Shown: piece after piece, positions 14,618 to 60,324 of the stretch
Layout of the letters: each line of letters opens with the position of its first letter
Position numbering within the stretch: position 1 is the first letter of the stretch
Assembly: GCA_050950765.1 (NCBI GenBank)
Contig: JBMNIF010000002.1
Location: 800,001 to 864,000, forward strand
DNA length: 64,000 bases
Reading direction: 5' to 3'
Source of the DNA: Bdellovibrionota bacterium
GTDB taxonomy: Bacteria > Bdellovibrionota_C > UBA2361 > JAAYZI01
Program-made: the position numbers and the translations under genes
Notes under the pieces: generated by a model
Databases searched by the model: none
What the model was told of the DNA's origin: nothing
The model's input: only the letters and a program-made list of their open reading frames with translations

Positions 14618-16153
14618 CTAGTTCAATTTTTCTTCCGTTAATTTAATTAAACTTTCAAACAGCTTTTGATCGTTAATAATGCGTGGCACTTTATTTTGTC
14701 CGCCGAGTTTGCCGCGACTCTTCATCCACTCTGAAAATGTACCCACTGCTGCTACTGTAACAGTAGGATCTTTTAAGCCGAAACCTTCAGCTCTATGCGC
14801 TGCGTAATCTTCATTCCGTTCGCAAAGCCGTTGATCCAGTTTCTTACAAAAGACGGTAAGATCTTCTGCCGTTGGCACTTTGCCGCCAAACTCGACTATA
14901 TAACGATGTCCCCCGAGTTCGCCACTGTGTGCGGGAAAAACAGCACCGACAGAATAATCAGTAACTGTATTTCCAATAGCATCAGCTGCAAAGGATACAG
15001 CATCTTCTATCTCTTCTCCGATTAGGTGTTCTCCAAACGCTGAAAGAGAGTAAGATGTGCGTCCAGTGATTAAGAGGCGTGGTGGAAGTTTATCTATAAA
15101 CTTTACGGTATCCCCGATCAGATAGCTCCAAAGCCCCGCGCAGGTCGTAAGTACGATGGCATAATTGACACCTGTTTCAATGGTGCCGATCCAATGTCGA
15201 GTTGGGTTTGTAGAGTTTATTTCCTCAAGTGGGATGAACTCATAAAAAATATCGTTATCAAGATTTAATCTCAGCCCTTCACCGTATCCGCGGTCTGCTG
15301 TGGCAATAAAACCTTCGCTCGCCGTATATACTTCACGCAGCTCGGTGTTGCTGCCTGCAATCAGATCTTTAAACTGTTTTTCGTAGGGTTTAAAATTAAC
15401 TCCGCCGTGCACGATCATTTCAAGGTTAGGATAAACTGTATTTAAACGACCTGTGGTGTTGGATGTAATCTCAAACAGTTTATTAATGAGGATTAATAGC
15501 CAAGAAGGTACACCACTTAGTAAACGGATATCATATTTTAGTGAAAGACGTGCCAGTAGATCGATCTTCTCTTCCCAATCTTTTATAAGGGCAAGTTTTG
15601 GTGAGGGGAAATAAAATGGTGCCACCCAAGAAGGACGAGTTTTAGCCACGATACCACTCAAGTCTCCGCTGAAAACCCTAGGGGCTTCTTGTACTAAATC
15701 AGTACTACCACCAAGTACAAAACTCTTTCCGGCAAATAACTTTGATTTTGGATTGTTGATAACGTGATAGATTAAGAGGTCTAAACCTGCTTTAACATTT
15801 GATGCCATCATCTCTTTTGTGAATGGTAGATATTTTGTTGTGCCACTGGTTGTGCCGGAGGTAACGGTAAAATACGGCATCCGTTTAGGCCAAGTTAGAT
15901 TATCCAGAAGGGGGTAGGTAGGTTGCCAATATTCTTTCCAAAAATCTTCATAGGTTCGTATCCTAACCTGCTTTTGAAAATCTTCTACCGAGTGAATTTT
16001 AGAGAATTGATGTTGTTGACCGAAGTGTGTGTTTTTTGCTGTGTGAATAAGTTTTAATAGTTGTTGCTTTTGAGTTGCAACGGGATCCATTGTTGAGAGC
16101 TTGTTATAGCGATATTTCGCAAAGAGGCTAAGGAGTGGTGTAAAGTTAATCAT
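14618..16153 (-). CDS. GH3 family acyl-adenylate/amido synthetase-like protein
   Basis: TSGTTSG, YTASEG, YLIGD, GGQNKVPR motifs typical of bacterial GH3 proteins. Confidence 0.88.
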   Translation of the reverse strand: MINFTPLLSLFAKYRYNKLSTMDPVATQKQQLLKLIHTAKNTHFGQQHQFSKIHSVEDFQKQVRIRTYEDFWKEYWQPTYPLLDNLTWPKRMPYFTVTSGTTSGTTKYLPFTKEMMASNVKAGLDLLIYHVINNPKSKLFAGKSFVLGGSTDLVQEAPRVFSGDLSGIVAKTRPSWVAPFYFPSPKLALIKDWEEKIDLLARLSLKYDIRLLSGVPSWLLILINKLFEITSNTTGRLNTVYPNLEMIVHGGVNFKPYEKQFKDLIAGSNTELREVYTASEGFIATADRGYGEGLRLNLDNDIFYEFIPLEEINSTNPTRHWIGTIETGVNYAIVLTTCAGLWSYLIGDTVKFIDKLPPRLLITGRTSYSLSAFGEHLIGEEIEDAVSFAADAIGNTVTDYSVGAVFPAHSGELGGHRYIVEFGGKVPTAEDLTVFCKKLDQRLCERNEDYAAHRAEGFGLKDPTVTVAAVGTFSEWMKSRGKLGGQNKVPRIINDQKLFESLIKLTEEKLN

Positions 16154-26975: not shown

Positions 26976-27126
26976 TTTTAGAGATTAATTCCTTATTAAG
27001 TGGGGGAGAGTAGATAACTTTAACCTTGTATTATAGATAGGTATTTCAAGTTGTTGCGTAAGAAAAGCGCTCGCTTTAGATCCTCCTTTCAATATTTAAA
27101 ATATTAAAAAATAAATTAAAAACCCT

Positions 27127-27153
27127 TAAGTTTTTTCATAAGGTAGCCGATCT
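27127..27153 (+). promoter_or_regulatory. Sigma28 (FliA)-type promoter
   Basis: TAAG-N15-GCCGATCT. Confidence 0.7.
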
Positions 27154-27221: not shown

Positions 27222-29819
27222 ATGAATAAAGAATACTTAAAAGATATTAGGGTAGGTTTTGCTGATAGAGGGAGAGCTTTTTGTGTCTGTTTAAATGTTA
27301 TGCAGTTAAATGTTATGCAGATACTTTTTATCTCGGTGCTCCTCTCTTTTATTATCCTGTTTTTTACAAACATTGCTCTCTCTCAAACAGTTACAGCAGG
27401 GTCGCTACAATCAGTAAGTGCTGGGGCAAATCATACCTGCGGCATAACAACAGATAGTAATAAAAATGTATACTGTTGGGGAAGTAATGAGTTTGGACGG
27501 TTAGGAAATGGAAGTGCGGTTGATAGTTCAGTGCCGGTAAAAGTAAAGGGGGGAGGACAGGGGGGAGCTTTTTTAAATGGGGTAAGTCAAGTTGCAGCGG
27601 GGTATTATCATACTTGTGCTGTTACAACAGGTGGAGAGCTCTACTGTTGGAAGGGTAGTTGTATAGGGTGTGGAAGCACTCCTGTTAGAGTTTTAAAAGG
27701 GGAACAAGAAAGTTCTGGCACATATTTAGAAGATATAAGTCAAGTTTCTGCTGGAAGTCAGCATACCTGTGCTGTTACAACGGGTGGAGAGCTTTACTGT
27801 TGGGGAAGTAATCTTTATGGGCAATTAGGAATCGGTTCTAAAGGCTCTGGAGGAAGACCTACTAGAGTTTTAAAAGGGGAACAAGGAAGCTCTGGCTTAT
27901 ATTTAGAAGATATAAGTCAAGTTTCTGCTGGATATGGGCATACCTGTGCCATAACAACAGGTGGGGAGGTTTATTGTTGGGGTTGGAATAATTACGGACA
28001 ATTAGGGATTGATTCTACGGAAAATCAAAGCACTCCTGTTAGGGTTTTAAAGGGAGAGCAAGAAAGTACCTGCTTATATTTAGAAGATATAAATCAAGTT
28101 TCCGCTGGAGGTAATCACTCTTGTGCTGTAACAGGAGGTAGAGAGGTTTACTGTTGGGGATGGAATCGTGTTGGACAGTTGGGGATTAATTCTGCGCTTA
28201 ATCAAAGTATTCCTGTAAGGGTTTTAAAAGGGGAGCAGGCAAGCTCTGAAATATATTTAGAAGATATAAGTCAAGTTTCTGCTGGAAGTCAGCATACCTG
28301 TGCTGTTACAACGGGTGGAGAGCTTTACTGTTGGGGAATGAATTCTCAAGGTCAGTTGGGAATCAATTCTACGTTAGATCAAACTACTCCTGTTAGGGTT
28401 TTAAAGGGAGCGCAAACGGGGAATGATACATATTTAGAAAATATAAGTCAAGTTACTATCGGATTTCTTTCTCTCTGCGCAGTAACAACAGGTGGGGAGC
28501 TTTACTGTTGGGGGAGTAATTTTAAGGGACGATTAGGAGATGGGACAACCACGAATCGTTCAGTGCCCGCTAAAATTTTCGATGGCTCTGGATCTGCGCC
28601 GTGTCAAAATGCCTGTTGTGCGCACTGGGGTTATGAAAATGTAGGAGAGGTTTGCTCCGCTGAGAGGATGTTTGATTGTTACGGAGCAGCAGGAGATTAT
28701 AGTGTAGTTTGTGGGAAAGATATCCCCAGCTGTTACGGAGATGCTAGGTATAATCAGATAGGGCAGTTTTGTACAACAGGTAGCGGAAACTGCATAGCCG
28801 CAGGCGATTATACCTGTTCCGGATCATCTCCTGATTCTTCCGTAGTGTGTGGCATTACTAATGTTGCACCATCTTGTTGCGAAGATGCGCTCTTTAGCAG
28901 AATCGGTAGCGCCTGTTCTAAAATAAATGGTAACTGTACTGCTACGGGTACGTACGTTTGTAGCGGTACTGAAACAGGTAGTAGTGTCAGGTGTAATATT
29001 ACTAATAATGGCGCTGCTTGCTGTGCTGATCCAAATTATATGTTACTAGGTACAGAGTGTTATAGCGGAGAGGGTGTTTGTAGAAGCGCAGGCACTTATA
29101 TCTGTGGAGGTTCTCTTACAAATAGCAATATAGTATGTAATGCAGTTCCGAACCTAGCTAATGCAGTTCTTGAAAATACAGAAGCTCTCTGTACAGATGG
29201 GCTTGATAATGATTGCGACGGTTTGCCAGATGAACTAGATCCTGATTGTGACCTCTGCCCTCTTGATAATAACAAATTATTCCCAGGGGTTTGTGGCTGC
29301 GGCATAGCTGATATTGATAAAAATCGTAATGGCATCATAGATTGTCTTGATCCGAAGTTACCAGCGGCAAAGATAAATAGTATCGTTACTAAAGAGACAG
29401 AGCCTATTAAGCCGCGAGTAGATGTGGTGAGGAGAAAGGTTATCGTTTATATGCAACGTTTTAACCGCGCAGAGTTACAAAACTTAAATATTGCAAATAA
29501 GTATGCTCGTAAGAAGGGTAGAAGAAATAAAAAGAGAGGTGATAAGATTACCTTTAAGTATGAAGTCTCTATGAGGTTAATCTCCGCCAATAAGATAACC
29601 AGTAAGAAAAATACAAATCGTACTAGGAAAAAGGTGCGCTCCCCTATCTCGAAACATAATAAGGTAGTCCTTAAGAAACAACGGAGAGGAGTCTACGAAG
29701 TTAAATACAGAATTAAGATTTATAAAAATGGTAAGTTTTTAAAGAACACAGAGTGGAGTGGTACTAGAAGAGTTGCGGTTCCGAAAAGAATAGTCTTCCC
29801 AAGGAGACCTAACTTGTAA
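27222..29819 (+). CDS. Secreted RCC1-repeat 7-bladed propeller protein A, with Cys-rich stalk, Asp-rich Ca-binding repeats and basic C-terminal domain
   Basis: Signal peptide, 7 x SAG..HTCAVTTGGELYCWG.N..GQLG, CTDGLDNDCDG, DLCP...GVCGCG, Lys/Arg-rich tail. Confidence 0.9.
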   Translation: MNKEYLKDIRVGFADRGRAFCVCLNVMQLNVMQILFISVLLSFIILFFTNIALSQTVTAGSLQSVSAGANHTCGITTDSNKNVYCWGSNEFGRLGNGSAVDSSVPVKVKGGGQGGAFLNGVSQVAAGYYHTCAVTTGGELYCWKGSCIGCGSTPVRVLKGEQESSGTYLEDISQVSAGSQHTCAVTTGGELYCWGSNLYGQLGIGSKGSGGRPTRVLKGEQGSSGLYLEDISQVSAGYGHTCAITTGGEVYCWGWNNYGQLGIDSTENQSTPVRVLKGEQESTCLYLEDINQVSAGGNHSCAVTGGREVYCWGWNRVGQLGINSALNQSIPVRVLKGEQASSEIYLEDISQVSAGSQHTCAVTTGGELYCWGMNSQGQLGINSTLDQTTPVRVLKGAQTGNDTYLENISQVTIGFLSLCAVTTGGELYCWGSNFKGRLGDGTTTNRSVPAKIFDGSGSAPCQNACCAHWGYENVGEVCSAERMFDCYGAAGDYSVVCGKDIPSCYGDARYNQIGQFCTTGSGNCIAAGDYTCSGSSPDSSVVCGITNVAPSCCEDALFSRIGSACSKINGNCTATGTYVCSGTETGSSVRCNITNNGAACCADPNYMLLGTECYSGEGVCRSAGTYICGGSLTNSNIVCNAVPNLANAVLENTEALCTDGLDNDCDGLPDELDPDCDLCPLDNNKLFPGVCGCGIADIDKNRNGIIDCLDPKLPAAKINSIVTKETEPIKPRVDVVRRKVIVYMQRFNRAELQNLNIANKYARKKGRRNKKRGDKITFKYEVSMRLISANKITSKKNTNRTRKKVRSPISKHNKVVLKKQRRGVYEVKYRIKIYKNGKFLKNTEWSGTRRVAVPKRIVFPRRPNL

Positions 29820-29821
29820 GA

Positions 29822-29853
29822 AGTTTTTTAAAAGCGGAAGCTTTTAAAAAACT
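29822..29853. terminator. Inverted repeat, probable terminator
   Basis: AGTTTTTTAAAAGC-GGAA-GCTTTTAAAAAACT; same element after the third paralog at ~35283-35314. Confidence 0.7.
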
Positions 29854-29888
29854 GTCTATCTTGGGGGAAAGTTGGGAAGTTGGCGTTC

Positions 29889-29991
29889 GGAGATGAACGC
29901 CCCTAGTTTTAGGGGTGGGAGCGTCTGATGGTGTAAATATACAATATCACGGGGGAGATGAACGCCCCTAGTTTTAGGGGTGGGAGCGTCT
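29889..29991. repeat. Two identical 38-bp hairpin repeats separated by a 27-bp unique spacer
   Basis: GGAGATGAACGCCCCTAGTTTTAGGGGTGGGAGCGTCT at 29889 and 29954. Confidence 0.9.
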
Positions 29992-30096
29992 AGTTGCCAA
30001 TTTAATTTATACAGATTCAGCTATATTTAATAAGAAACACCTATAAAAAGGTGACACTAAAAACCAAAAAAAGTAACTACAAGGGTAAAAAAACCT

Positions 30097-30123
30097 TAAG
30101 TTTTCCTACGATACTGCCGATAA
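30097..30123 (+). promoter_or_regulatory. Sigma28 (FliA)-type promoter
   Basis: TAAG-N15-GCCGATAA, consensus -10. Confidence 0.8.
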
Positions 30124-30184
30124 AACTAAGGATTGATATCGACTCACTAAAATGGGGTGTGGGATTACTCTCTTAAGGGTTCAG

Positions 30185-32266
30185 ATGAATAAAAAGAATT
30201 TGAAGGATATTAAGGTAGGTTTTGCTAAGGGGGAGGGAGTTTTTAGCAAGCACTTAAAAACCGTAAAGCTCTTTTTTATTCCGATGAGCCTCTCTTTTAT
30301 TACTCTATTTTTTACAAACGTTGCTCTTTCTCAAACAGTTACAACAGAATCGTTGCAATCAGTAAGTGCTGGGGCAGGTCATACCTGCGGCATAACAACA
30401 GATAGTAATAAAAATGTAGAGTGTTGGGGATTGAACTCTTCCGGACAATTGGGGATCAATTCTGCGGTTGATAAAACCACCCCTGCTAGAGTTTTTAAAG
30501 GAGAGCAGGATGGCTTCGGTTTATACTTAGAGGATGCAAGCCAAGTTTCTGCAGGTCATGATCATACCTGCGCCGTAACAGGAGATGGAGAGCTCTACTG
30601 TTGGGGAAATAATAGCACCTCACAATTAGGGAATAATGGTCCAACTGGATATCACACTACCCCTGTTAGAGTTTTAAAAGGAGAGCAAGGAGGTGTAGGT
30701 ACATATTTAAAAGATGTAAGCCAAGTTTCTGCTGGATATGGTCATACCTGTGCCGTAACAACACAAGGAGAACTCTACTGTTGGGGAGATAATGACTATG
30801 GGCGGTTGGGAATAAATCCTTCAACTTGGTCGGCAACCACTCCTGCTAGGGTTTTAAAAGGAGAACAGGGAGGTGCAGGTACGTATTTAAAAGATGTAAG
30901 CCAAGTTTCTACTGGAGCTAATCACACCTGTGCCGTAACAACACAAGGAGAACTCTACTGTTGGGGAGATAATGACTATGGGCGGTTGGGAATAAATCCT
31001 TCAACTTGGTCGGCAACCACTCCTGCTAGGGTTTTAAAAGGAGAACAGGGAGGTGCAGGTACGTATTTAGAAGATGTAAGCCAAGTTTCTGCTGGAGAAT
31101 ATCATACCTGCGCCGTCACAACTCAAGGAGAGCTCTACTGTTGGGGTTTAAATTTCACTGGACAATTGGGGATTAATTCTACCTTAGATCAAACTATCCC
31201 TGTTAGAACTTTAAAAGGTGAACAAGGTGGTGTAGGCACATATTTAGAAGATGTAAGTCAAGTTTCCACTGGGAAATATTATACTTGTGCTGTAACAACA
31301 GGTGGAGAGCTTTACTGTTGGGGATTAAATTCCTCCGGACAGTTGGGGAACTATTCTACCTTAGATCAAAGCACCCCTGTTAGAGTTTTAAAAGGAGCGC
31401 AGACAGGTATAGGGTCATATCTAGAAAATATAAGTCAAGTTACTACGGGGGATATTCACACCTGTGGTGTAATAACAGGTGGTGAGCTTTACTGTTGGGG
31501 CAATAATACTATTGGCGAATTAGGTGATGGCACAACCACTAATTATTTAACACCTGCTAAGATTTTTGATGGTTCCGGATCTGCACCGTGTCAAAATGCC
31601 TGTTGTGCGCACTGGAATTACGGAAATATAGGGGTAGCGTGTTCTGCCGAAAATGTATTTGGGTGTTACGGAGCAGCAGGAGGTTATAGCGTAGTTTGTG
31701 GAGAAGATGCACCGACAGGAACTCCTACTCCTTCTCCTACCCCCACACCTAGTTTAGATGCTTGTCCAGATGATCCGAATAAAACTGAACCTGGAATTTG
31801 CGGTTGTGGCGTACCTGATGTTGATAATAATCATAATGGCATTATTGATTGCCTAGACCCGAAGGTGCCGACGGAGGACGTCGTTACTCCAAAGACTAAG
31901 CCTGCTACTCCTGAAGTAAAGTTAAGAAAAAGAAATAATATCGTTGTTTTTATGCAACGGTTTAAACGTGCAGAGCTGCTGCAAAGATTTAGTAACGTCT
32001 TTAGTTGCGCTAAGAAAAATAAAAAGAGAAGAATTACCTTTAAGTATGAAGTCGTTATAAGACGGGTTCCTGCTAATAAGGTACGTAAGAGTAGCGCTAA
32101 GAAAAAGACGCAATCTCGGATCTTAAAACGTAATAGAGTAATCTTTAAGAAACAGCGACAAGGAACTTATAAGATTAGGTACAGAGTTAAGATCTATAAG
32201 AACGGTAAACTTGCTAAGAACACGAAGTGGAGTAATTCTAAGAGTGTTAAAGTTCCGAGAAGGTAG
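30185..32266 (+). CDS. Secreted RCC1-repeat propeller protein B, with short PT linker instead of the Cys-rich stalk
   Basis: Start MNKKNL homologous to paralogs; 7 RCC1 units; PTGTPTPSPTPTP; DACPDDPNKTEPGICGCG; basic tail. Confidence 0.9.
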   Translation: MNKKNLKDIKVGFAKGEGVFSKHLKTVKLFFIPMSLSFITLFFTNVALSQTVTTESLQSVSAGAGHTCGITTDSNKNVECWGLNSSGQLGINSAVDKTTPARVFKGEQDGFGLYLEDASQVSAGHDHTCAVTGDGELYCWGNNSTSQLGNNGPTGYHTTPVRVLKGEQGGVGTYLKDVSQVSAGYGHTCAVTTQGELYCWGDNDYGRLGINPSTWSATTPARVLKGEQGGAGTYLKDVSQVSTGANHTCAVTTQGELYCWGDNDYGRLGINPSTWSATTPARVLKGEQGGAGTYLEDVSQVSAGEYHTCAVTTQGELYCWGLNFTGQLGINSTLDQTIPVRTLKGEQGGVGTYLEDVSQVSTGKYYTCAVTTGGELYCWGLNSSGQLGNYSTLDQSTPVRVLKGAQTGIGSYLENISQVTTGDIHTCGVITGGELYCWGNNTIGELGDGTTTNYLTPAKIFDGSGSAPCQNACCAHWNYGNIGVACSAENVFGCYGAAGGYSVVCGEDAPTGTPTPSPTPTPSLDACPDDPNKTEPGICGCGVPDVDNNHNGIIDCLDPKVPTEDVVTPKTKPATPEVKLRKRNNIVVFMQRFKRAELLQRFSNVFSCAKKNKKRRITFKYEVVIRRVPANKVRKSSAKKKTQSRILKRNRVIFKKQRQGTYKIRYRVKIYKNGKLAKNTKWSNSKSVKVPRR

Positions 32267-32600
32267 TTTTTTACGTAAGTGATTATTACCCTCCCCTCTA
32301 TTCTGATTAACTACTTAAAAAAGAGACGAGGATATTTTCCCACAGCTTTTTATTATGTTTTTTACAAGGTAAATACTACTAAAACTTTAAGTCAACTTTG
32401 ATCTTTAGACCTATCTCTTTTAAGAGGTAGAAGGTCTCTCTACTATTACCTTTATCCTTCAATAGCCCCCACCTGTCGTTTAGATCTAAGGTTCTGTTAT
32501 TAACAAAAGTATTTAACAAGAGAGGAATTAAAGAGGTTTTAGGTGGGTGATAGCGCCATTCTTTTTAAGGTCTAAAATAGTAAAAATAGATTAAAACTAT

Positions 32601-32627
32601 TAAGTTTTTTCACAATACAGCCGATGT
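32601..32627 (+). promoter_or_regulatory. Sigma28 (FliA)-type promoter
   Basis: TAAG-N15-GCCGATGT. Confidence 0.7.
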
Positions 32628-32694
32628 TGCAGGAGATTGATATCTCTCTATTGAAATTAAAGTGTTGAGATTAGTTTGTTTGTTAAAGGTTTAG

Positions 32695-35280
32695 ATGAAT
32701 AAAGAATACTTAAGAGATTTTGAATTAGGTTTTGCTGATAGAGGGAGAGCTTTTAGCGCCTCTTTAAATGTTATGCAGTTAAGAGTTATGCAGATACTTT
32801 TTATCTCGATGTTTCTCTCTTTTATTACCCTGTTTTTTACAAACGTTGCTTTTTCTCAAACAGTTACAGCAGGGTCGTTACAATCAGTAAGTGCCAGTCT
32901 AAACAATACCTGCGGCGTAACAACAGATAGTAATAAAAATGTATATTGCTGGGGAAGTAACGAATATGGACAGTTAGGAAACGGAAGTGCGGAAGATAGT
33001 TCAGTGCCGGTAATGGTAAAGGGGGGAGAGCAGGGCGGAGCTTTTTTAAATGGGGTAAGTCAAGTTGCAGCGGGGTATTATCATACTTGTGCTGTTACAA
33101 CAGGTGGGGAGCTTTACTGTTGGGGAAGTAATTATTTCGGACAATTGGGAATTAATTCTACCTTAGATCAAACTATCCCTGTTAGAACTTTAAAAGGTGA
33201 ACAAGGTGGTGTAGGCACATATTTAGAAGATGTAAGTCAAGTTTCCACTGGGAAATATTATACTTGTGCTGTAACAACAGGTGGAGAGCTTTACTGTTGG
33301 GGATATAATACTTTTATGCAATTAGGAATTAACGTTTTTGAGTTTGAAAAAACCACTCCTGCTAGGGTTATTAAAGGAGAACAAGTAAGTTCTGGCACAT
33401 ATTTAGAAGATATAAGCCAAGTTTCTGCTGGAGAATATCATACCTGCGCCGTCACAACTCAAGGAGAGCTCTACTGTTGGGGTTTAAATTTCACTGGACA
33501 ATTGGGAATTAATTCTAGAAGAACTATTCTAGGCACTCCTGCTAGAGTTTTAAAGGGAGAGCAAGAAAGTTCCAGCTTATATTTAGAAGATATAAGTCAA
33601 GTTTCTGGTGGAAGTGAATATACCTGTGCTGTAACAACGGGTGGAGAGGTTTATTGTTGGGGATTGAATAATGGACAATTAGGGATTAATTCTACGGACA
33701 ATCAAAGTATTCCTGTTAGAGTTTTAAAAGGGGAACAAGGAAGCTCTGGTTTATATTTAGAAAATATAAACCAAATTTTTGCTGGAGAGGAGCATGTCTG
33801 TGCTGTAGCAACGGGTGGGGAGCTTTACTGTTGGGGAATAAGTGCCTCTGGACAATTAGGAAATAATTCAGATCACGAAATTACTACAATGACTCCTGTT
33901 AGGGTTTTAAAAGGAGCACAAGGAGGCGAGGGTTTATATTTAGAAGATATAAGTCAAGTTGCTGCTGGAGAAAAGCATACGTGTGCTGTTACAACAGGTG
34001 GAGAGCTTTACTGTTGGGGGTATGGAGGTAAAGGGGAATTAGGTTACGGAAATACGAAATATACCTTACTACCCGCTAAAATTTTCGATGGCTCCGGATC
34101 TGCGCCGTGTCAAAATGCCTGTTGTACGCACTGGGGTTATGAAAATATAGGAGAGGTTTGCTCCGCTGAAAAGATCTTTGGTTGTTACGGAGTAGCAGGA
34201 AGTTATAGCGTAGTTTGTGGAGAAGATGCCCCTAGCTGTTACGGAGATGCTAGGTATACTCAGATAGGGCAATTTTGTACAACAGGTAACGGATTTTGTA
34301 TTGCAAGGGGAATATACCAATGTTCAGGTGCGTTTACGACAGATCCTGTGACGTGTAATATCACACTACCTGCTGCTGCTTGCTGCGCCGATCCGAATTA
34401 TACGTTACTAGGTACAGAGTGTTATAGCGGGAAGGGTGTTTGTAGAAGTGCAGGAGAGTATGTTTGTAACGGTGTAGCCTCTACAAGCTCTGTTAGATGT
34501 AATGCAGTTCCGAACTTAGCTAATGCAGTTCTCGAAAATACAGAAGCTCTCTGTACAGATGGGCTTGATAATGATTGCGACGGTTTACCAGATGAACTTG
34601 ATCCTGATTGTGACCTCTGCCCTCTTGATGATAACAAATTATTCCCTGGAGTTTGTGGTTGCGGTGTTCCTGAAACAGATAGCGATGGAGATGGTACGCC
34701 TGATTGTATTGATCTCTGCCCAGCAGACCCTAATAAGATAGAAGCAGGGGTTTGTGGCTGCGGCATAGCTGATATTGATAAAAATCGTAATGGCATCATA
34801 GATTGTCTTGATCCGAAGTTACCAGCGGCAAAGATAAATAGTATCGTTACTAAAGAGACAGAGCCTATTAAGCCGCGAGTAGATGTGGTGAGGAGAAAGG
34901 TTATCGTTTATATGCAACGTTTTAACCGCGCAGAGTTACAAAACTTAAATATTGCAAATAAGTATGCTCGTAAGAAGGGTAGAAGAAATAAAAAGAGAGG
35001 TGATAAGATTACCTTTAAGTATGAAGTCTCTATGAGGTTAATCTCCGCCAATAAGATAACCAGTAAGAAAAATACAAATCGTACTAGGAAAAAGGTGCGC
35101 TCCCCTATCTCGAAACATAATAAGGTAGTCCTTAAGAAACAACGGAGAGGAGTCTACGAAGTTAAATACAGAATTAAGATTTATAAAAATGGTAAGTTTT
35201 TAAAGAACACAGAGTGGAGTGGTACTAGAAGAGTTGCGGTTCCGAAAAGAATAGTCTTCCCAAGGAGACCTAACTTGTAA
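32695..35280 (+). CDS. Secreted RCC1-repeat propeller protein C
   Basis: Same architecture as A; 3' end appears identical to A; one extra DSDGDGTPDCIDLCP repeat. Confidence 0.9.
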   Translation: MNKEYLRDFELGFADRGRAFSASLNVMQLRVMQILFISMFLSFITLFFTNVAFSQTVTAGSLQSVSASLNNTCGVTTDSNKNVYCWGSNEYGQLGNGSAEDSSVPVMVKGGEQGGAFLNGVSQVAAGYYHTCAVTTGGELYCWGSNYFGQLGINSTLDQTIPVRTLKGEQGGVGTYLEDVSQVSTGKYYTCAVTTGGELYCWGYNTFMQLGINVFEFEKTTPARVIKGEQVSSGTYLEDISQVSAGEYHTCAVTTQGELYCWGLNFTGQLGINSRRTILGTPARVLKGEQESSSLYLEDISQVSGGSEYTCAVTTGGEVYCWGLNNGQLGINSTDNQSIPVRVLKGEQGSSGLYLENINQIFAGEEHVCAVATGGELYCWGISASGQLGNNSDHEITTMTPVRVLKGAQGGEGLYLEDISQVAAGEKHTCAVTTGGELYCWGYGGKGELGYGNTKYTLLPAKIFDGSGSAPCQNACCTHWGYENIGEVCSAEKIFGCYGVAGSYSVVCGEDAPSCYGDARYTQIGQFCTTGNGFCIARGIYQCSGAFTTDPVTCNITLPAAACCADPNYTLLGTECYSGKGVCRSAGEYVCNGVASTSSVRCNAVPNLANAVLENTEALCTDGLDNDCDGLPDELDPDCDLCPLDDNKLFPGVCGCGVPETDSDGDGTPDCIDLCPADPNKIEAGVCGCGIADIDKNRNGIIDCLDPKLPAAKINSIVTKETEPIKPRVDVVRRKVIVYMQRFNRAELQNLNIANKYARKKGRRNKKRGDKITFKYEVSMRLISANKITSKKNTNRTRKKVRSPISKHNKVVLKKQRRGVYEVKYRIKIYKNGKFLKNTEWSGTRRVAVPKRIVFPRRPNL

Positions 35281-35430
35281 GAAGTTTTTTAAAAGCGGAA
35301 GCTTTTAAAAAACTGTCTATCTTAGAGTAAGTTGGGGTTTGGCGTTTAGAGATAAACGCTCCTAACTTCCGAACTAAGATACCTTTTAGCTAAAATTGGA
35401 ATTTCTAGGAAGTTAGGAGGGAGCGTAGCC

Positions 35431-36438
35431 TTATCTGATTAACTCTTCTATCTGAGGAGCGATTAAGTCTTTTAAAGCTTCAAGTGGATCTCCTGCTGTG
35501 CCGTGAAAATGAAGGCGGTGTAGTAGAACAAATGGTGCCATAAGCTTCAGATCGTCTACTGAAACATAATCCCGTCCATTTACAAGCGCCCAACCTTGAA
35601 TGGCAGATTGTAACATCAGAGCTGCTCGTGTTGAGGCACCAAACTGTAAGAGGGGAGTGTCTCTAGTAGCCTGCACGATATTTACAATAGCTTGACGCAA
35701 CTTGGGGCTAATAAAGATGTTAGCGGCAACAGACCTAGCACGAAGGACATCACTACGCGAACAAACAGGTGTCGGATGCGTTGCTGCTTCTTTAATCGCT
35801 TGATGGTCTCTTAAGATCTCTATCTCCGTTTCCGTATCAACGTATGACATCGGGATCCTTAGGAGAAAACGATCCAACTGCACCAACGGTAACGGATACG
35901 TTCCCGCTATATCGAGTGGGTTTTGTGTGCCGACAACAAAGAATAGGTCATCAAGTGGATAGGTGTTGTTATCGATCGTTACCTGCTTTTCAGCCATACA
36001 CTCAAGAAAAGCAGCTTGAACCTTTGGACCCGTACGGTTAATTTCATCAGCTAAGACGATATTTGCAAAAACAGGCCCAGATCTAAAGGTAAAGGTGGCT
36101 GTGTGCGGCTCAAAAACTGTTACACCTAAAACATCACCTGGTAACATATCGGGGGTGAATTGAATCCTACTATATGGATGGATCTCAGGACGTTCAGGAT
36201 TATCCTTTGAGATAAGTCCGCCTAACGTTTTTGTTAAGGTTGTTTTACCTGACCCTGGATAGTCTTCAATCAAGACGTGACCATCAACCACTAAAGCAGC
36301 TAGTAGTAACTTAATAGTGTCATCTCTACCACGAATTGCACGTTGTAATCCGTTGATAAGTCGTTGAATGGTCTCCACACCCTCTTTAAACTGCGCATCC
36401 TGTTCAGGTGTTGTTTTATTTTCCTGATAATCGTTCAT
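35431..36438 (-). CDS. MoxR-family AAA+ ATPase
   Basis: EDYPGSGKT, RIQFTPDMLPGD, LADEINR, TQNP, QLDRF. Confidence 0.93.
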   Translation of the reverse strand: MNDYQENKTTPEQDAQFKEGVETIQRLINGLQRAIRGRDDTIKLLLAALVVDGHVLIEDYPGSGKTTLTKTLGGLISKDNPERPEIHPYSRIQFTPDMLPGDVLGVTVFEPHTATFTFRSGPVFANIVLADEINRTGPKVQAAFLECMAEKQVTIDNNTYPLDDLFFVVGTQNPLDIAGTYPLPLVQLDRFLLRIPMSYVDTETEIEILRDHQAIKEAATHPTPVCSRSDVLRARSVAANIFISPKLRQAIVNIVQATRDTPLLQFGASTRAALMLQSAIQGWALVNGRDYVSVDDLKLMAPFVLLHRLHFHGTAGDPLEALKDLIAPQIEELIR

Positions 36439-38393
36439 AGTTCCCTTTTAAAAACACTTAGAGTTAAATCGTTAATGGCTGTTCTTAAATCACTGTTAAG
36501 AACAGTGCGCGTCGGAATCGAAAGATTCTGACATGAAAAAACCAAGCTGTGTTGCTGATCTGCCATTTGTATGTGGTTAAGCAGACAACGTGCCTCTGTT
36601 GACCTTAAAAAGATAGAAGCATTTAGGTTTTTAAGAAGTTCTTCGGAGTTAGTATTAACTTGAACCGGAAATCTTAATCCATAATTTATAAGCTCACTCC
36701 TTGAAATAGAAAATAACTTATAAGCAAGTTTCTGATAGTCTTTACTGTCAACTTGTAGCAGCGATAATTTCAATACTAATATCTTTACTTTCAAGGCGTT
36801 GTCAAAAGGTTCTCTTATGGAAGATAAAACTTCGTTAAGGATCGTGTGCGCCTCCTGTTCTGCGCCGTGCTGAATTAAGTTTTCAGCTAAAAATGTTTTA
36901 TAATAAACCTCTGCCGTAGGTCGCTTATCAAGTTCTTTTACACGTTTTAATCTGTTTTTTAAGAGGCGTGTCGGAATATCTGCTAAAACACTTCCGAGCA
37001 GGGGATATTCAAGCATGCTGTCCGTATTTCTGATATAGATATCTTCAAAGTCATTTAGGTCTTCCATTAGGATCTGTCTGGCGCGACGCATCAACCACCA
37101 AGATCTGATGCGATTTGAAGCTCTCTGATAAGATATTTGAAGTCGCTCTTTTGCTCCGGAAGGAAGATAAAACTTAAGATGATTATTTTTTGCTAATAGC
37201 GCTTGCGCCAATGAGGAGAGGGCAGCAGCCTGCATATCACTTTGATTGGTGCCGATCTTTCCAAAAAATTGCCTTTCCTTAGCGGCTATCTCTAAAGTTT
37301 TTAAAGCTTCATCAATGTCTCCCGTGTGTAGAGCGATACGTCCTAGTGCCATATTCATTAATGATTTATGCTCCTCTTCATTTTTTAACGGAAATTGGGC
37401 ACGACACCTTTCAAACTCAAGTAGATTTTGACGAGCTCCTCTAAAGTTTAACTCTTCGATGTTAAGTGTTGCTAAATTAATGCTAAGTAAGATGTGATCA
37501 CAAAATTTAGGAGAGAGCACGGCACGCTCCCAGTTCCTGCGAGCGTTCCTCTCATCAAAAATTTCACGGTAAACTTCTCCAGCGTTGTTAAGGGGGGAAA
37601 TGACATCACCGTTAGAACCTAGTGCTGCCTCGTAATCATAAGCTTCTTTAAAAGCTTGCAAGCTCGCCTGCTTTTCATCAACGGTTGAGAGCAGAATACC
37701 TAAAATATTTAAAATAGCACCACGTTGCGATCTCCCTAAAAAAAGCCCAAGCCTTGCTACTTTTAATGCCTCTTCATTCCTACCCAGTTTGAATAAGATC
37801 CAAGCACGAGATGATGCTACCCATTCATCAGTGTAGTTATATTTTGTAAACTCATCCAGCGCAGCTAACGCTCCTTCATAATCATCAAGATTAAGTCTAA
37901 TGGCGGAGATAAGATTTAAGATATTCTTATGAAACTCTTTTGTTAAAAGGTTATAATAAGGTGGCTTGCCTTTGATCTTATACAAGATCTGTTCAGCACG
38001 CTTAGCATAACGTAGAGCTAACTTAAAGTGTCCGACATGACGCAGATAATATTCTGATAATAAAAGGTGCGCCCCTAACAAATTCGGATCTTTCTGCAAA
38101 GCTTTGAGAAACTTCGTTCGGGCTTCAAGGAGTTTATCACTCATCTGTAAACTTATCCCCTCCTGTAAAAGGGTCTCGGCAGATTTATTAGCATCAGGGT
38201 CTTTTTTACCTTGAAAGGTGTTAGTAGGTTTTGCGGAAAACGGATTTAAAGGTTCTTGCACCTCCGAGTCATCAAAAAAGAAGGGAGAAGGAGGATCGTT
38301 TTCAAAGTCAGCTTGCACGTGCAGAGGTAGTAGCAGCATACTCAAAAGTAAGGTTGTAAATATGAAAGGTCGTTTTAAAAAGATGTGTTGCAT
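36435..38393 (-). CDS. Exported TPR-repeat protein
   Basis: Signal peptide; TPR-like helices (ALQKDPN, LNILG, LNNAG.VY). Confidence 0.75.
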   Translation of the reverse strand: MQHIFLKRPFIFTTLLLSMLLLPLHVQADFENDPPSPFFFDDSEVQEPLNPFSAKPTNTFQGKKDPDANKSAETLLQEGISLQMSDKLLEARTKFLKALQKDPNLLGAHLLLSEYYLRHVGHFKLALRYAKRAEQILYKIKGKPPYYNLLTKEFHKNILNLISAIRLNLDDYEGALAALDEFTKYNYTDEWVASSRAWILFKLGRNEEALKVARLGLFLGRSQRGAILNILGILLSTVDEKQASLQAFKEAYDYEAALGSNGDVISPLNNAGEVYREIFDERNARRNWERAVLSPKFCDHILLSINLATLNIEELNFRGARQNLLEFERCRAQFPLKNEEEHKSLMNMALGRIALHTGDIDEALKTLEIAAKERQFFGKIGTNQSDMQAAALSSLAQALLAKNNHLKFYLPSGAKERLQISYQRASNRIRSWWLMRRARQILMEDLNDFEDIYIRNTDSMLEYPLLGSVLADIPTRLLKNRLKRVKELDKRPTAEVYYKTFLAENLIQHGAEQEAHTILNEVLSSIREPFDNALKVKILVLKLSLLQVDSKDYQKLAYKLFSISRSELINYGLRFPVQVNTNSEELLKNLNASIFLRSTEARCLLNHIQMADQQHSLVFSCQNLSIPTRTVLNSDLRTAINDLTLSVFKREL

Positions 38394-40591
38394 TAGGCGC
38401 GTCTCCTCTCAAAGATCGTTAAGATAGAGGAGATATTTAAATACGATAAGAGACGTTTCTTTAATGGGATTACGTGTAACGCTCCGTTATCTGCTTCAAT
38501 CCCTTGCAGTAACGCCCCCTCCTTTAACCAAGTTGCATCCCTATCAAACTCAAGACGTGATAGTAGAGAAGCAGTGCTTAATTGCGAAGAATTAAGTAGC
38601 GAGCTGACACGCTCTCTAAACTCTTCATACGTCTCTCCGTATTGTCTACCAAACCCCAAATCGTGTAACTGCACCGTAACGGCACGATAACCTCTGCGGA
38701 GTCGTTTCGGTAGTGAAGAAGGGAGGTGCCAAGCTAAAATAAGATACGCTTTGTAAAGATAAAGTAGTAAAAGCAGCGTGGCTAGTAGTAGTATCGTATT
38801 CTTTAATGAAGGTAAGGGGTAGGTGGAGCTTTCTGAAAACCCTTTTTCACCTGTTGTTAGATCCTCAGGTAGGATCTCTTCGTCAGGGCCGATCAGCCCC
38901 ATCAACTCTTCAAGGAGATCTACATCAACGGGGGTTTCTGCGTGACTTTCTACGTGTTGCGGAGCAAGGTCAAAGGGGATCCACCCTATTTTATTAACGT
39001 AGACCTCTGCCCAAGCGTGTCTATCATTCATGCGTAAGAGGATGTGCCCATCTTTAGCTTGACTTAAATCGGTGGCATAGCCTGTGGCGATACGGGTAGG
39101 AAACCCTAATGATCTTAATAGATATGTGATGGCATGCGCAAAGTGCACACAATAACCACGCATATCTCCAAAAAGAAAGGTCGAAACGGGATCTTCGCCG
39201 TCTTTGATCTCTTGCCCTGGGGTGAGGGTGTAAATTACGTTTTGATTGAGATAGGCGATCAGTAGATTTAATTTAGCAAGTGGAGTATCGCCGTTAGCTG
39301 TGATCTTTTCAGCAAGCTCTTTATAGCGTGGGTCGGGGTTGGTACGTAAATAATACTCACGCACTTCAGGAGTCCAATCTGGATTGTCAAATATAGCAAA
39401 GCTGAGATCCTTTGGAAGAAACGCTGGTGCCATAGAGTAAGCTTTATAGGCTGCTTTGAATTTATTGGTATTATCAGGAACTTTTAAAGGCGTGATATTA
39501 AGTGGATAATCTATGGCAAAAGCATTCTGTTGTTCCGCTAAAAGATAAACTGATTGAACCACAGGAGTTCGGTATTCTAATTCAGTTTTGGCTTTCCGAT
39601 TGTACGGTTGTTGAGGAGTAGTAAAGTTTACATCATCATCAATCTTATGGTCTCCGATGATCAAACTTTTGCCGTCAAAATCAGAGATGGCGGAGTCTCT
39701 AAAATATAACATCGGGGTGTTTGGATTCTCTTTATAGTCGTTATCTAACCTCACCAAAGCCACAGGTTGATTTGAACTGCCGAGTCCTGAATGAAAATCA
39801 AGTGGAGAGATCCCTTCACGAGTATCTTCACCGACACCATTCTTGATCTTACTGGCAGAAGCTTGCTCATGATAGGTGTAAGTTTGGTAGCAGATTAGAT
39901 AGAGCACAACGGCTGCTAAAGTTAAAATGATAGAACCTGAAAGACGATCTTTAGCACCGTTATGTACAAACGTTGAGGTTCGTGCTGCGGAAGAGGTGCT
40001 AAACGGTGTTGCTGCGATAATAGAGTATAGAACAATGGATATCGTAATTGCTGCAATGATTATAATAAGCATGGTCAGTTGCGAAACGCCGAAGTACCAA
40101 GCAACTGAGTTTACAAACTCCAAACGATCAAAGTGATAGTGTCGATGCCCCGCAAGCATCCCTATAAAAAGTATTATTAGTGCAAAAAGCTCAACTGTTA
40201 GAGCGTGTTTATACCTCCAAAAAAAGTAGGTAGAGAGTGTGGCGATCCAAAAAGAGAGCGCTATCAGGTTTAGATGTTGCGTAAAGGAGTAGATCCCAAA
40301 GGTCATTGAGGAGGGTATCAACCTAATGAGTGCTATTATCAAAGAGAAAAGAGGGATGGCGATAATAGAAATCGTTAAAAATCCACGTAGCGCTAAACGT
40401 GTTGAGCTTAAAAACGTTCCCGCCAAGAGCCCTAAAATTGCAGCTAAACTGATTAAGCTTGGAGCGGTACCGAGCTCTATAAATCTATCAAGTGCATAAA
40501 CAAAGAAGGAAAAGAATGCAGCACGTGCTAGTAGAATAAAGATATAAGTAGATCTGCGCCGCTTTAAGTCTGTGTTATTTAGGGGTGTCAC
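38393..40591 (-). CDS. Membrane-bound transglutaminase-like protein
   Basis: Multiple N-terminal TMs; Cys-His-Asp triad GYCVHFA, HAWAEVY, GWIPFD. Confidence 0.88.
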   Translation of the reverse strand: MTPLNNTDLKRRRSTYIFILLARAAFFSFFVYALDRFIELGTAPSLISLAAILGLLAGTFLSSTRLALRGFLTISIIAIPLFSLIIALIRLIPSSMTFGIYSFTQHLNLIALSFWIATLSTYFFWRYKHALTVELFALIILFIGMLAGHRHYHFDRLEFVNSVAWYFGVSQLTMLIIIIAAITISIVLYSIIAATPFSTSSAARTSTFVHNGAKDRLSGSIILTLAAVVLYLICYQTYTYHEQASASKIKNGVGEDTREGISPLDFHSGLGSSNQPVALVRLDNDYKENPNTPMLYFRDSAISDFDGKSLIIGDHKIDDDVNFTTPQQPYNRKAKTELEYRTPVVQSVYLLAEQQNAFAIDYPLNITPLKVPDNTNKFKAAYKAYSMAPAFLPKDLSFAIFDNPDWTPEVREYYLRTNPDPRYKELAEKITANGDTPLAKLNLLIAYLNQNVIYTLTPGQEIKDGEDPVSTFLFGDMRGYCVHFAHAITYLLRSLGFPTRIATGYATDLSQAKDGHILLRMNDRHAWAEVYVNKIGWIPFDLAPQHVESHAETPVDVDLLEELMGLIGPDEEILPEDLTTGEKGFSESSTYPLPSLKNTILLLATLLLLLYLYKAYLILAWHLPSSLPKRLRRGYRAVTVQLHDLGFGRQYGETYEEFRERVSSLLNSSQLSTASLLSRLEFDRDATWLKEGALLQGIEADNGALHVIPLKKRLLSYLNISSILTIFERRRA

Positions 40592-41994
40592 GCAGCATCC
40601 TCCGAAAAAAGTCGCCAGTTATTAGTTGTGGCTAGTTGTAAAAAAGCGATCTTATCCTCCTCTGAAAAAGGTGGTTTCTCTTCAGGGAAAAACCACTCTG
40701 AAAGATGAGCTCTTGAGGCGTTTAGAAAAGAATTGTTGTGTCGAGGTTTGCTTAAAATTATAGGGTGCTCTCCAATCATAAAAAAGATCGGTTCAATCTG
40801 TCTTGCACTAAGGATATCAGCTGTATCAGTCAACGTTTTAATAAAACTGCGATCTGATAGCCGTGCGCTATCAAAAAATAGTAGGATAGATTGAAGGTGA
40901 GCGTTGTGCTGAGCTCCTTTTATATCATCAACAAAGGTTAATACCTCTGAGAGTGGAGAAGCGTTTTTAACGTTCCAAACTTCAGTAACCATACGATCTT
41001 CAGCGATAGTTAAAGAATTTGTTGCTTGCGCCGTAGAGCCCTCGCAATTAAAAACTATTTCAAGGTCGGCACTACTTAGCCGTTGCAGATACGCTGCTGC
41101 CGCCGCCGCTGTACGGTCATCTTCAGCACGAGCAAAACAGAAGACAGCCACCTGCCCCTCCGGTGAAGATGCAGCTTCTTGATGGCGTGACATTAAAGTG
41201 CCGGAACGGGCAAAGATCTTCCAGACGATTTTTTTTATGCCGTCTGATGGATGATACCGTTTTATATCAAGTGGCTCTCCACGTCGTTCTTTGGAAGCGG
41301 TGATGACATCGCCTGCTTTATAAAATGAGCTGAGGATGGGAAGTTTGGCAACAGAGACAGGAGTAGGGAAAACTTTGAAGGATTGAGTCACTTCTGGTGT
41401 TTTTATATCCCACGAAAAAGCGCTAAGTCCAAGTCTGCCCTGAAGAGAACACGTTATCTTTGAGATACGCCACACACCGCGGTGCGGAAAGGTGATAGGA
41501 TAGGTTAGGAGTTTTTTCTCATAAAAGGTGCCTTTTAAGGTGTATTGCAGTGGTTGTGGATCTGCGTCTGCAAAGTGAATGGAGAGGGAGAGGTTAAAGA
41601 GTGGAAGGATCTTACAATGAGGTAGCTTTAATAAAAGAGTTGTCTCTTTACGAGCGTAGGTGCGGTCATTAGGTGTTGCCAGTGGTGGTTGTACAGCGAG
41701 ACTTTGCAACTTTTGCTTTAGGGAAAGTCCGTGTAGGAGGGTTGCAAAAACAGCATAGAGTAAGATTACGAAAAGGGCAGACGCTATGATGGTTGCTGTA
41801 ATATCAGCATCTTTTTTAATGGGAAAGATTAAAAGGAGTAGTAGAAAAAAGAGTAGTAGAACTCCGCGCAGAGTGATCCTGAACTCCATCTTTTTTGCCG
41901 TGTTTTGTATAAATTTAAAAACGTTGAACATATTTAGAACGATACTCAAAAATTGCGGATAGTAAAAGAGAGAAGAGAGATAATAAGGGCGCAA
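40588..41994 (-). CDS. DUF58-family protein (true start probably further in, ~41890-41930)
   Basis: GEPLDIKRYHPSD..K.IVWK..AR motif; N-terminal TMs; heads the MoxR operon. Confidence 0.8.
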   Translation of the reverse strand: MRPYYLSSLFYYPQFLSIVLNMFNVFKFIQNTAKKMEFRITLRGVLLLFFLLLLLIFPIKKDADITATIIASALFVILLYAVFATLLHGLSLKQKLQSLAVQPPLATPNDRTYARKETTLLLKLPHCKILPLFNLSLSIHFADADPQPLQYTLKGTFYEKKLLTYPITFPHRGVWRISKITCSLQGRLGLSAFSWDIKTPEVTQSFKVFPTPVSVAKLPILSSFYKAGDVITASKERRGEPLDIKRYHPSDGIKKIVWKIFARSGTLMSRHQEAASSPEGQVAVFCFARAEDDRTAAAAAAYLQRLSSADLEIVFNCEGSTAQATNSLTIAEDRMVTEVWNVKNASPLSEVLTFVDDIKGAQHNAHLQSILLFFDSARLSDRSFIKTLTDTADILSARQIEPIFFMIGEHPIILSKPRHNNSFLNASRAHLSEWFFPEEKPPFSEEDKIAFLQLATTNNWRLFSEDAA

Positions 41995-59724: not shown

Positions 59725-60324
59725 TTAATCCTTGTGGGAGTACACTGAACAACTGATTCTAACAGGACATTTTTTACATTTTTGTGGTTGTGGTGTTGCT
59801 ATCGCCTTACTCTTCTTTTGAAGAATGTTTTGCATTTCATCAATGATCCCTTGTAACCAAGCCTGTTTTTCAGGGGTGTTCTGTATTTTTACACGACGGC
59901 GATTTTGTCCGATGATAAGATAGCCATAAGGTGGCCTCTTCCCTTCAAACTCTTCTACAAGGCGCATATGAACAAGTAGTTGAGCGACGTAGCGATCACG
60001 TATTTTTTTGCCTAACGGTTTATGTTCTATCGGGATGATATAACCGTTTTCGCTGATGAGGGCATCAGGCTTTCCTGAAAGGAGCTGCATATCTGAGACG
60101 TAACTCCGCGGCTTTAAAGAATCAGATCCTGTTGGTTTAAGACTCTCTTTTAACTCTTGTTGTGGTAGCCCCGTCTCTTGGCGTTTCTTTTTTGCTGCCA
60201 TGCTTATGGCATCAAGGACAATTACGATACAAGATAAAAGTATAACCGCGATAGCAACGGAGATGTCACAATTAGCTATATCAACCAGTAGATCATAGAG
60301 GTAGTTTTTTATCTGGTCGTGCAT
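59725..60324 (-). CDS. Membrane-anchored Cas4-like PD-(D/E)XK nuclease, catalytic half
   Basis: N-terminal TM, LSGKPD, PIEHK, QLLVH, PPYGYL, C-terminal CKKCPVRISC. Confidence 0.82.
   Translation of the reverse strand: MHDQIKNYLYDLLVDIANCDISVAIAVILLSCIVIVLDAISMAAKKKRQETGLPQQELKESLKPTGSDSLKPRSYVSDMQLLSGKPDALISENGYIIPIEHKPLGKKIRDRYVAQLLVHMRLVEEFEGKRPPYGYLIIGQNRRRVKIQNTPEKQAWLQGIIDEMQNILQKKSKAIATPQPQKCKKCPVRISCSVYSHKD

Follow-up and report, generated by a model that had tools for sequence, protein, structure and literature searches.

Introduction

In Podospora anserina, a fungus, the WD40 repeats of the NWD/HNWD genes het-d and het-e are exchanged, and their hypervariable codons lie on the binding face of the propeller (PMC1805685, PMC12222747). 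Here, we describe three genes of a Bdellovibrionota bacterium, designated A, B and C, each of which encodes a propeller of seven RCC1 repeats. They lie in a 64,000-nucleotide stretch of the genome G000 (the window, G000:C2:800001-864000). An earlier note on this stretch had proposed that the three genes shuffle their blades as a candidate system for diversifying surface receptors or adhesins. We find that DNA has recently been exchanged out of register among the blades, within and between genes, and that blades differ between strains. Positions are those of the window unless a contig is named, and the features are collected in Table 1.

The exchange of RCC1 blades works like het-d/het-e shuffling, without being a member of that system. 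In both, propeller repeats are exchanged within and between members of a family, the scaffold is conserved and a few codons per repeat are hypervariable. The genes described here differ in having RCC1 instead of WD40 repeats, in encoding apparently exported bacterial proteins instead of intracellular NACHT/HET proteins (A, B and C gave no Pfam match to NACHT or HET domains), and in having blades that are about 71% alike in DNA (mean pairwise identity 0.71 for 17 blades).

Bacterial propellers of the RCC1/BLIP-II group with very similar blades make up 10% of the set of Pereira and Lupas (2022), who explain repetition by amplification of one blade (PMC9218822). The words "recombination", "gene conversion" and "concerted" have no occurrence in its main text. 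Here, blade DNA passes from gene to gene, and the strains are not alike in it. UVR8, human RCC1 and BLIP-II share the seven-bladed fold. However, they are single-copy proteins with diverged blades, whereas here each blade has two cysteines and the propeller is followed by a stalk and an FN3 tail. The RCC1-repeat effectors PpgA, PieG and LegG1 of Legionella are injected and act on host Ran signalling; they too are bacterial RCC1-repeat genes that vary between strains, there by duplication and splitting, and the consulted part of that report describes no blade-level exchange (PMC7157520). The MAT fibre proteins of Bdellovibrio bacteriovorus form a mosaic surface repertoire of trimeric fibres with varied binding heads (PMC10769870). 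The mosaic repertoire is a point of likeness, and the MAT lineage label appears among the nearest named relatives of G000, but the present proteins combine a propeller, a Cys-rich stalk and an FN3 tail and have no trimeric fibre domain. We found no literature on blade exchange among bacterial RCC1 genes within a coverage that excludes subscription journals.

Results

The exchange is seen in exact DNA tracts (Table 1). All four tracts reported in the earlier note are exact, the 94-bp one with coordinates off by one base. The 94-bp and 154-bp tracts are adjacent in B (31077-31325) and stand in swapped order in C, 108 bp apart, as the note had described. Such identity goes far beyond chance. Among the 17 blades, identical runs within a blade reach 94 letters, compared with at most 50 in 300 codon-column shuffles, and seven pairs of blades have a run of at least 60 letters, compared with none in all 300 shuffles. 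Of the DNA that encodes the propellers, 31% in A, 67% in B and 33% in C lies in exact tracts of at least 30 nt that are found elsewhere in A, B, C or a fourth gene, D. These tracts begin and end inside blades, at many blade offsets, and the exchanged unit is a part-blade tract, not a whole blade. Nearest-neighbor blades mix genes, and distances among the 17 blades measured on their front halves are uncorrelated with those measured on their back halves (r = 0.06, p = 0.29), although saturation of the back halves could itself lower this correlation. Together with the tracts and the chance test, the lack of correlation supports the earlier suggestion that recombination or gene conversion through the scaffold reassorts the loops.

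The pool of blades extends beyond the window. A blade profile search of G000 (2.64 Mb in five contigs, 94% complete) finds seven RCC1 open reading frames (ORFs), namely A, B, C, D, E, F and H, with 28 blades in D (3,365 aa), 7 in E, 14 in F and 9 detected in H. Gene D lies 33 kb from A on the opposite strand and consists of one E-like propeller, three near-identical propeller units about 1.6 kb apart, a Cys-rich and Pro/Thr stalk and an FN3 tail, with 1,335 bp exact between two of the units. It is the main exchange partner of B, with which it shares exact tracts of 354 bp (two copies in D), 261 bp and 171 bp; its exact tract in common with C is 70 bp long. Stalk tracts are common to D and C and to D and E. 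The proposal that blades shuffle thus holds insofar as the exchange is real, and requires amendment in that parts of blades move, stalks and tails move as well, and the donors include a gene outside the window.

In the whole genome, 11 gene pairs share tracts of at least 60 nt in at least two registers, four of them among A-D and five in one other repeat-protein family. A second family, of long Asp/Cys-repeat proteins (G000:C1:540312-543887, C2:1241165-1244275, C2:1247905-1252140 and C3:2634-8078), has exact tracts in several registers and is located at contig ends. Genes F and H may be interrupted by insertion sequences. An ORF that looks transposase-like by eye lies directly upstream of F, which has no leader (G000:C2:316771-320967), and another stands between H and a detached tail-domain fragment (600625-606196).

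A database protein, P0001 (JGI, 692 aa), is an allele of B. Its 24 differences all fall in residues 175-234 and 389-397, within blade 3 and the loop tip of blade 6, and the other 624 residues are identical. The back half of its blade 3 equals the back half of the window's blade 6, while the front of its blade 3 and the tip of its blade 6 are absent from all G000 ORFs of at least 100 aa. Both alleles of B keep seven blades, in line with the constant blade count claimed earlier. The paralogue E, with its diverged blades, serves as a control: the propeller is the same in 3/3 of its alleles (P0365-P0367), which differ by one stalk residue or by the loss of one 59-residue stalk repeat (in P0367).

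Further variation is present in the metagenome run X9, which is 99.8% like the window in the flanks (3 of 1402 letters differ). In this run, a single 513-letter contig joins C 33982-34181 directly to a stalk segment of A (Table 1), with 0 mismatches on either side and 11 shared letters at the joint. As only these 11 letters are shared, and A and C are 81% alike before the joint, a 31-letter repeat cannot explain this C-to-A chimera. Another X9 contig, over the end of B, agrees with the window only from 31373 onward, the very position at which P0001 returns to the sequence of the window. Three of the four X9 loop and linker motifs tested are absent from G000. The X9 comparison was made with likeness set at 85 and at a depth of 4-8, and some pieces could come from a paralogue absent in G000. 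Blade-level differences between strains are observed, with the count of seven kept in the one full allele.

Several other candidates were rejected. The letter differences of X9 inside gene A do not represent an allele of A, as the codons are those of the back half of B1 followed by a blade foreign to G000. Gene D accounts for the joints 28370-31031 and 32957-30536, and gene E probably for the joint 29478-32086. The joint 31826-34677 is also among the run joints, beyond those traced to D or E.

The tracts are not assembly errors, as contigs from other runs match the window letter for letter. From the repeats of G000 itself, 76 branch points were predicted in 13,001 positions. In run X2, 14/14 internal piece ends fall on these points, and in run X3 12/15 do so, the three misses lying in low-depth DNA outside the RCC1 genes; the pieces of both runs have 0 mismatches. 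The depth of X2 over 30576-31443 is about three times that of the flank, as a multi-copy structure predicts, and P0001 independently shows B4, B5 and the B6 front in the window's order. The four runs mapped come from four studies, so at most one of them can be the source of the assembly. This check rests on the listed run pieces, none of which covers the B3-to-B4 junction.

Genes A, B and C each have seven CW[GK] anchors and seven RCC1_2 Pfam stretches above cut-off, in agreement with the earlier count of seven blades. Blades of this family have two cysteines each. Gene B probably starts at 30185 (693 aa), as in the database protein, and its propeller is followed by a short stalk, a Pro/Thr linker, one Asp/Cys repeat and the basic FN3-fold tail. 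Blade A2 is 8 codons shorter than C2, and its front half is nearly identical to that of C2. Each protein has one hydrophobic stretch, near residues 30-52, that we read as a probable signal peptide. Weak NCBIfam matches (TraB, TaeI and an acidic double-disulfide repeat) were far below cut-offs and were discarded.

The B propeller, the only one modeled (A2 is without part of its loop), is predicted to have 28 strands, with a predicted local distance difference test (pLDDT) score of 90 and a predicted template modeling (pTM) score of 0.90. UVR8 is its best structural match (TM 0.76/0.88, 30% identity); HERC and RCC1 are also among the best, and BLIP-II matches with TM 0.44-0.47. With seven RCC1 repeats and a predicted closed, seven-bladed, four-stranded propeller, the protein has the features that define the RCC1/BLIP-II group.

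Variability among the blades is concentrated at alignment columns 11-12, 30, 32, 33, 43-48 and 59-63. Columns 11-12 form the a-b strand turn, columns 30-49 the c-d loop and columns 59-63 the inter-blade linker. In an antiparallel blade, the first two of these elements share a face, and the linker is on the opposite one. Column 11 stands, in the HMMER alignment, opposite the W of the UVR8 GWRHT motif, and column 30 opposite the W two residues after WG. Columns 11, 12, 30, 32 and 33 align with UVR8 W285/R286, W94/W198/W302, R200 and Y201 (native numbering as read here); W285, W94, W198 and W302 are at the UVR8 dimer interface (PMC7455749). These five hypervariable positions are predicted to share one face, where face membership is assigned by the UVR8 alignment and strand topology, not by coordinates. 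The claim that the variable loops lie on one binding face is thus sustained for the five positions and not for the linker.

The scaffold has a ratio of nonsynonymous to synonymous polymorphism (pN/pS) of 0.27. The ratio rises to 1.74 at columns 11-12 and lies at 0.86-0.97 in the remaining variable classes (0.94-0.97 for the c-d loop), at sites that are near saturation and were chosen after the variability was seen. The fronts of blades D11 and D25 are identical except at codons 11-12, and those of B3 and B4 differ mainly at codons 9-12. Diversifying selection at the loops is only suggested by these sequence comparisons, with a ratio above 1 in one of the four variable classes.

The tail has 43-44 K+R in 130 residues and no Pfam match. 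Its model has an FN3 fold (pLDDT 84; Z 11.5 and root-mean-square deviation 2.6 over 95 residues against DCC FN3 domains). It occurs at seven places in G000, six at the ends of RCC1 ORFs and one near H, beyond the transposase-like ORF. Among 121 genomes sampled from the phylum, 18 have tail matches, strong only in G000 and in family f8 (4/4); in the sequences of three f8 genomes, G008 and G097 carry the tail behind RCC1 propellers. An atlas search with the tail gave no feature match at 0.9 or above.

The order is rich in RCC1 proteins, and G026 and G008 have the post-propeller Cys motif. Long blade tracts are few in the relatives (56 and 44 bp in the 7 ORFs of G026, 58 bp in the 5 of G008 and 105 bp in the 3 of G021), and none of at least 40 bp is present in G017 (1 ORF) or in the blades of G097 (2 RCC1 ORFs). 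These values come from selected regions of fragmented assemblies, which hide exact repeats, and G003 yielded no ORF under the CWG filter. Two G026 tracts of 77 and 71 bp were discarded as overlaps of adjacent frames. No close relative was found at the DNA level (77 loci in a metagenome scan, best identity 48%), and shorter proteins gave no close fragment (best 45% among the 120 listed). A 20-mer of the scaffold has no match in viral contigs.

Each of A, B and C is preceded by a TTAAG-N16-CCGAT box (Table 1), and D by a one-mismatch form of it. A consensus of the TTAAG-N16-CCGATA type precedes 92 of 140 attack-phase promoters of B. bacteriovorus and has been assigned to FliA (PMC3627812). In G000, 10/18 such boxes lie upstream of genes, compared with 0-1 for every other spacer of 12-20. 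The box is probably a real promoter. FliA (sigma-28) may be its sigma factor, by resemblance to the published consensus, and G000 has a fliA profile match above cut-off. Three of the ten boxed genes are A, B and C; the others include rpsB, clpX and a DnaJ-domain gene. Together with a boxed sigma-54 activator (window 49033), the latter three form an unusual set for a sigma-28 regulon. CCGAT is absent within 400 nt upstream of 7/7 flagellin matches checked. A looser sigma-28 pattern showed no spacer preference, only the position-filtered box did, and scans for sigma-70 promoters and terminators were at chance level. The hairpin that follows A and C belongs to a small family with 12 pattern matches over both strands; other runs have the same arms with 35-letter loops. 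Between A and B, a 38-bp exact direct repeat occupies 29889-29926 and 29954-29991.

The runs that contain the window are bioreactor and anaerobic-digester metagenomes, and 9 of the 22 listed runs hold at least half of its words; RNA runs hold only 5-13%. Named relatives at 64-68% GyrA identity carry the labels Bdellovibrionales, Bdellovibrionota, Oligoflexia, Deltaproteobacteria, Dadabacteria and Pseudomonadota, so the lineage can be given no more closely than as uncultured and Bdellovibrionota-like. Against named genomes, GyrA had matches of only 46-60% in unrelated groups, of no use for the taxonomy. The genome carries fliA, nine flagellin-domain matches and pilB.

Elsewhere in the window, a 1,853-aa ORF on the minus strand crosses the start (1-2827; G000:C2:797266-802827) and has Kelch-like followed by Ig-like repeats, judged by eye; it is probably another large exported protein. 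Convergent with gene C on the minus strand (35431-41994) are genes for a MoxR-type AAA ATPase, a TPR protein and a transglutaminase-like membrane protein. A GH3-family gene lies at 14618-16153 and a solitary Cas4-like nuclease gene at 59725-60324. An Rfam scan of the window gave no match.

Table 1. Positions of the RCC1 genes, exact tracts, strain-variable segments and putative regulatory elements
Feature	Position	Strand	Remark
TTAAG-N16-CCGAT box	27126..27151	+	before gene A
Gene A	27222..29819	+	865 aa; start resembles a signal peptide, followed by a propeller of 7 RCC1 blades (27402-28595), a Cys-rich stalk and a basic tail with predicted FN3 fold
Blade A2	27573..27725	+	51 aa only, without GQLG loop
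86-bp exact tract	27722-27807 = 28253-28338	+	copy 1, A2 end/A3 front; copy 2, A5 end/A6 front
A stalk segment	28676..28988	+	in X9, joined directly behind C 33982-34181
579-bp exact duplicate, A = C	29284-29862 = 34745-35323	+	tail domain, stop codon and hairpin
14-pair hairpin	29822..29853	+	after gene A; terminator-like
TTAAG-N16-CCGATA box	30096..30122	+	before gene B; perfect match to published consensus
Gene B	30152..32266	+	704-aa ORF; 7-blade RCC1 propeller at 30350-31582
354-bp tract	B 30536..30889	+	identical to gene D blades 9-10 and 16-17
Blade B3	30707..30886	+	P0001 has another blade here (19 differences)
144-bp tandem exact tract	30746-30889 = 30926-31069	+	back halves of B3 and B4
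94-bp exact tract	B 31077-31170 = C 33413-33506	+	sequence comparison
154-bp exact tract	B 31172-31325 = C 33151-33304	+	sequence comparison
Blade B6 loop tip	31352..31372	+	polymorphic; window form in X2 and X3, other form in P0001
C-terminal basic domain of B	31874..32263	+	FN3 fold in model, no Pfam match; common to RCC1 genes of G000
TTAAG-N16-CCGAT box	32600..32625	+	before gene C
Gene C	32695..35280	+	861 aa; architecture as gene A; propeller 32875-34101
14-pair hairpin	35283..35314	+	after gene C
Gene D	G000:C2:783734-793831	minus	33 kb from A

Discussion

Copying of tracts, about 70-350 bp long, has taken place inside single genes and from gene to gene, out of register and across opposite strands 33 kb apart. 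On balance, we favor the explanation that the RCC1 blades of A, B, C and the three similar D propellers belong to a single recombining pool, on which ordinary recombination acts and in which the loops of exported propellers are selected for binding. We propose that homologous recombination or gene conversion would be primed in the conserved, strand-coding scaffold, and that selection for a closed propeller would hold the blade count at seven. The proteins would be exported, and a stalk rich in disulfides would carry the propeller. The a-b turn and the c-d loop together make up a face that may bind a partner that changes, most likely another cell's surface, so that new loop combinations would be favored.

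As to the agent, recA is present, and we found no reverse transcriptase, no common site at the tract ends and no silent cassette; we therefore infer RecA-type conversion, and ordinary recombination is the likely cause. Low MutS activity was considered and rejected, as mutS is also present.

Several observations weigh against this explanation. The inter-blade linker, on the opposite face, varies too, and pN/pS is close to 1 in three of the four variable classes. Exchange also reaches the stalk and tail modules and an unrelated repeat family, as simple recombination between paralogues would produce even if the loops were not under selection. Identity is slightly higher for blades that share a position (0.73, n = 16) than for blades of the same gene (0.69, n = 40) or the remaining pairs (0.68, n = 80), so that A and C remain partly collinear; strict clustering by position, which the earlier note had named as a refutation, is not seen, and a slight excess of this kind does exist. 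For B a single full allele was found, for A and C none, and P0001 is on a 3,450-bp contig, where short-read assemblies of such repeats can err (PMC12222747). No transmembrane or barrel anchor follows the signal stretch in A, B or C, as judged by Pfam and hydrophobicity, and the earlier description of these proteins as surface adhesins finds no support here. Finally, hisD, aroC and ilvC are present in G000 and give no support for a prey-dependent lifestyle; predation by this bacterium is neither shown nor suggested by these markers.

The strongest competitor is neutral concerted evolution, in which recently amplified, similar blades recombine because they are similar, the loops are unconstrained and mosaics arise without advantage. 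The first three of the points above speak for it, and so does the stalk repeat lost in the E allele P0367. However, the D11/D25 and B3/B4 fronts differ just at or around the a-b turn, pN/pS is 1.74 there, and all 24 changes in P0001 fall within the propeller. We regard neutrality as rather improbable, while giving it more weight than any other alternative.

It is also conceivable, though unlikely, that the same mechanism serves another job, with the propellers acting as released binders (BLIP-II-like enzyme inhibitors, phage decoys or kin-recognition tags) and not as adhesins. The missing anchor would suit this role. The structural matches include BLIP-II, which is a secreted inhibitor of the RCC1 type, and the closest mechanistic analogue, het-d/het-e, acts in self/non-self recognition. 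Conversely, the long Cys-rich and Pro/Thr stalks and the conserved, very basic tail would suit tethered display, and each gene has the box from which B. bacteriovorus, in its free-swimming phase, drives genes for the cell surface.

A dedicated high-rate machine, such as a targeted recombinase, a cis signal or an RNA-templated step that shuffles blades within a clonal population, is very improbable. In its favor, the exchange is far denser than in RCC1 genes of five relatives (56, 58 and 105 bp; none of at least 40 bp in two), and several blades differ between strains whose flanks are almost the same. However, the fragmented assemblies of those relatives hide exact repeats, and the listed pieces of X2 and X3, runs of two separate studies, have the arrangement found in the window. 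Diversity-generating retroelements leave adenine-only differences between template and variable copies, whereas the blade halves here differ at all four bases or are fully identical. RVT_1 has 0 matches in the 94% complete genome, where a control matched in 3/14, and no recombinase is found among the 40 window proteins, the only part of the genome in which recombinases were sought; the earlier note had remarked that the window has neither enzyme. The tract ends, at many offsets, also lack the single short crossover site of a shufflon. In cassette conversion of the pilE/pilS and vlsE type, silent partial cassettes feed one expressed locus, and a cis signal initiates conversion. Here, there are no silent partial cassettes, and all similar blades found lie in full-length ORFs with their own promoter-like box. 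The idea of a dedicated diversification system, as opposed to recombination among paralogues, is not borne out.

That the tracts are assembly chimeras or collapses, as the earlier note had warned, is hardly credible given the piece ends, depth and blade order described above, even though such repeats are hard to assemble from short reads (PMC12222747), the B3-to-B4 junction is in no listed piece and D holds three near-identical 1.6-kb units.

Returning to the recombining blade pool, repeat exchange and a variable propeller face are already established for fungal WD40 receptors, and the locus is not a new diversity machine. What is added here is strain-level evidence in a cellular bacterium, consisting of a near-identical allele in which one blade and one loop are replaced, a stable paralogue control and an inter-gene chimera in another sample. 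More speculatively, and with considerable doubt, the genes could provide a sigma-28-phase display of combinatorial RCC1 propellers, in which shuffled loops set cell attachment or recognition and change so fast that strains 99.8% alike in the flank differ, with the FN3 tail as a lineage-specific tag for surface attachment or export. If so, they would be a bacterial, extracellular counterpart of fungal NOD-like receptor (NLR) repeat shuffling, and their propellers would make up a library of natural binders. If the loops set specificity, the family would offer a tractable example of varied cell recognition in an uncultured Bdellovibrionota-like lineage, and a natural source of disulfide-stabilized seven-loop binders.

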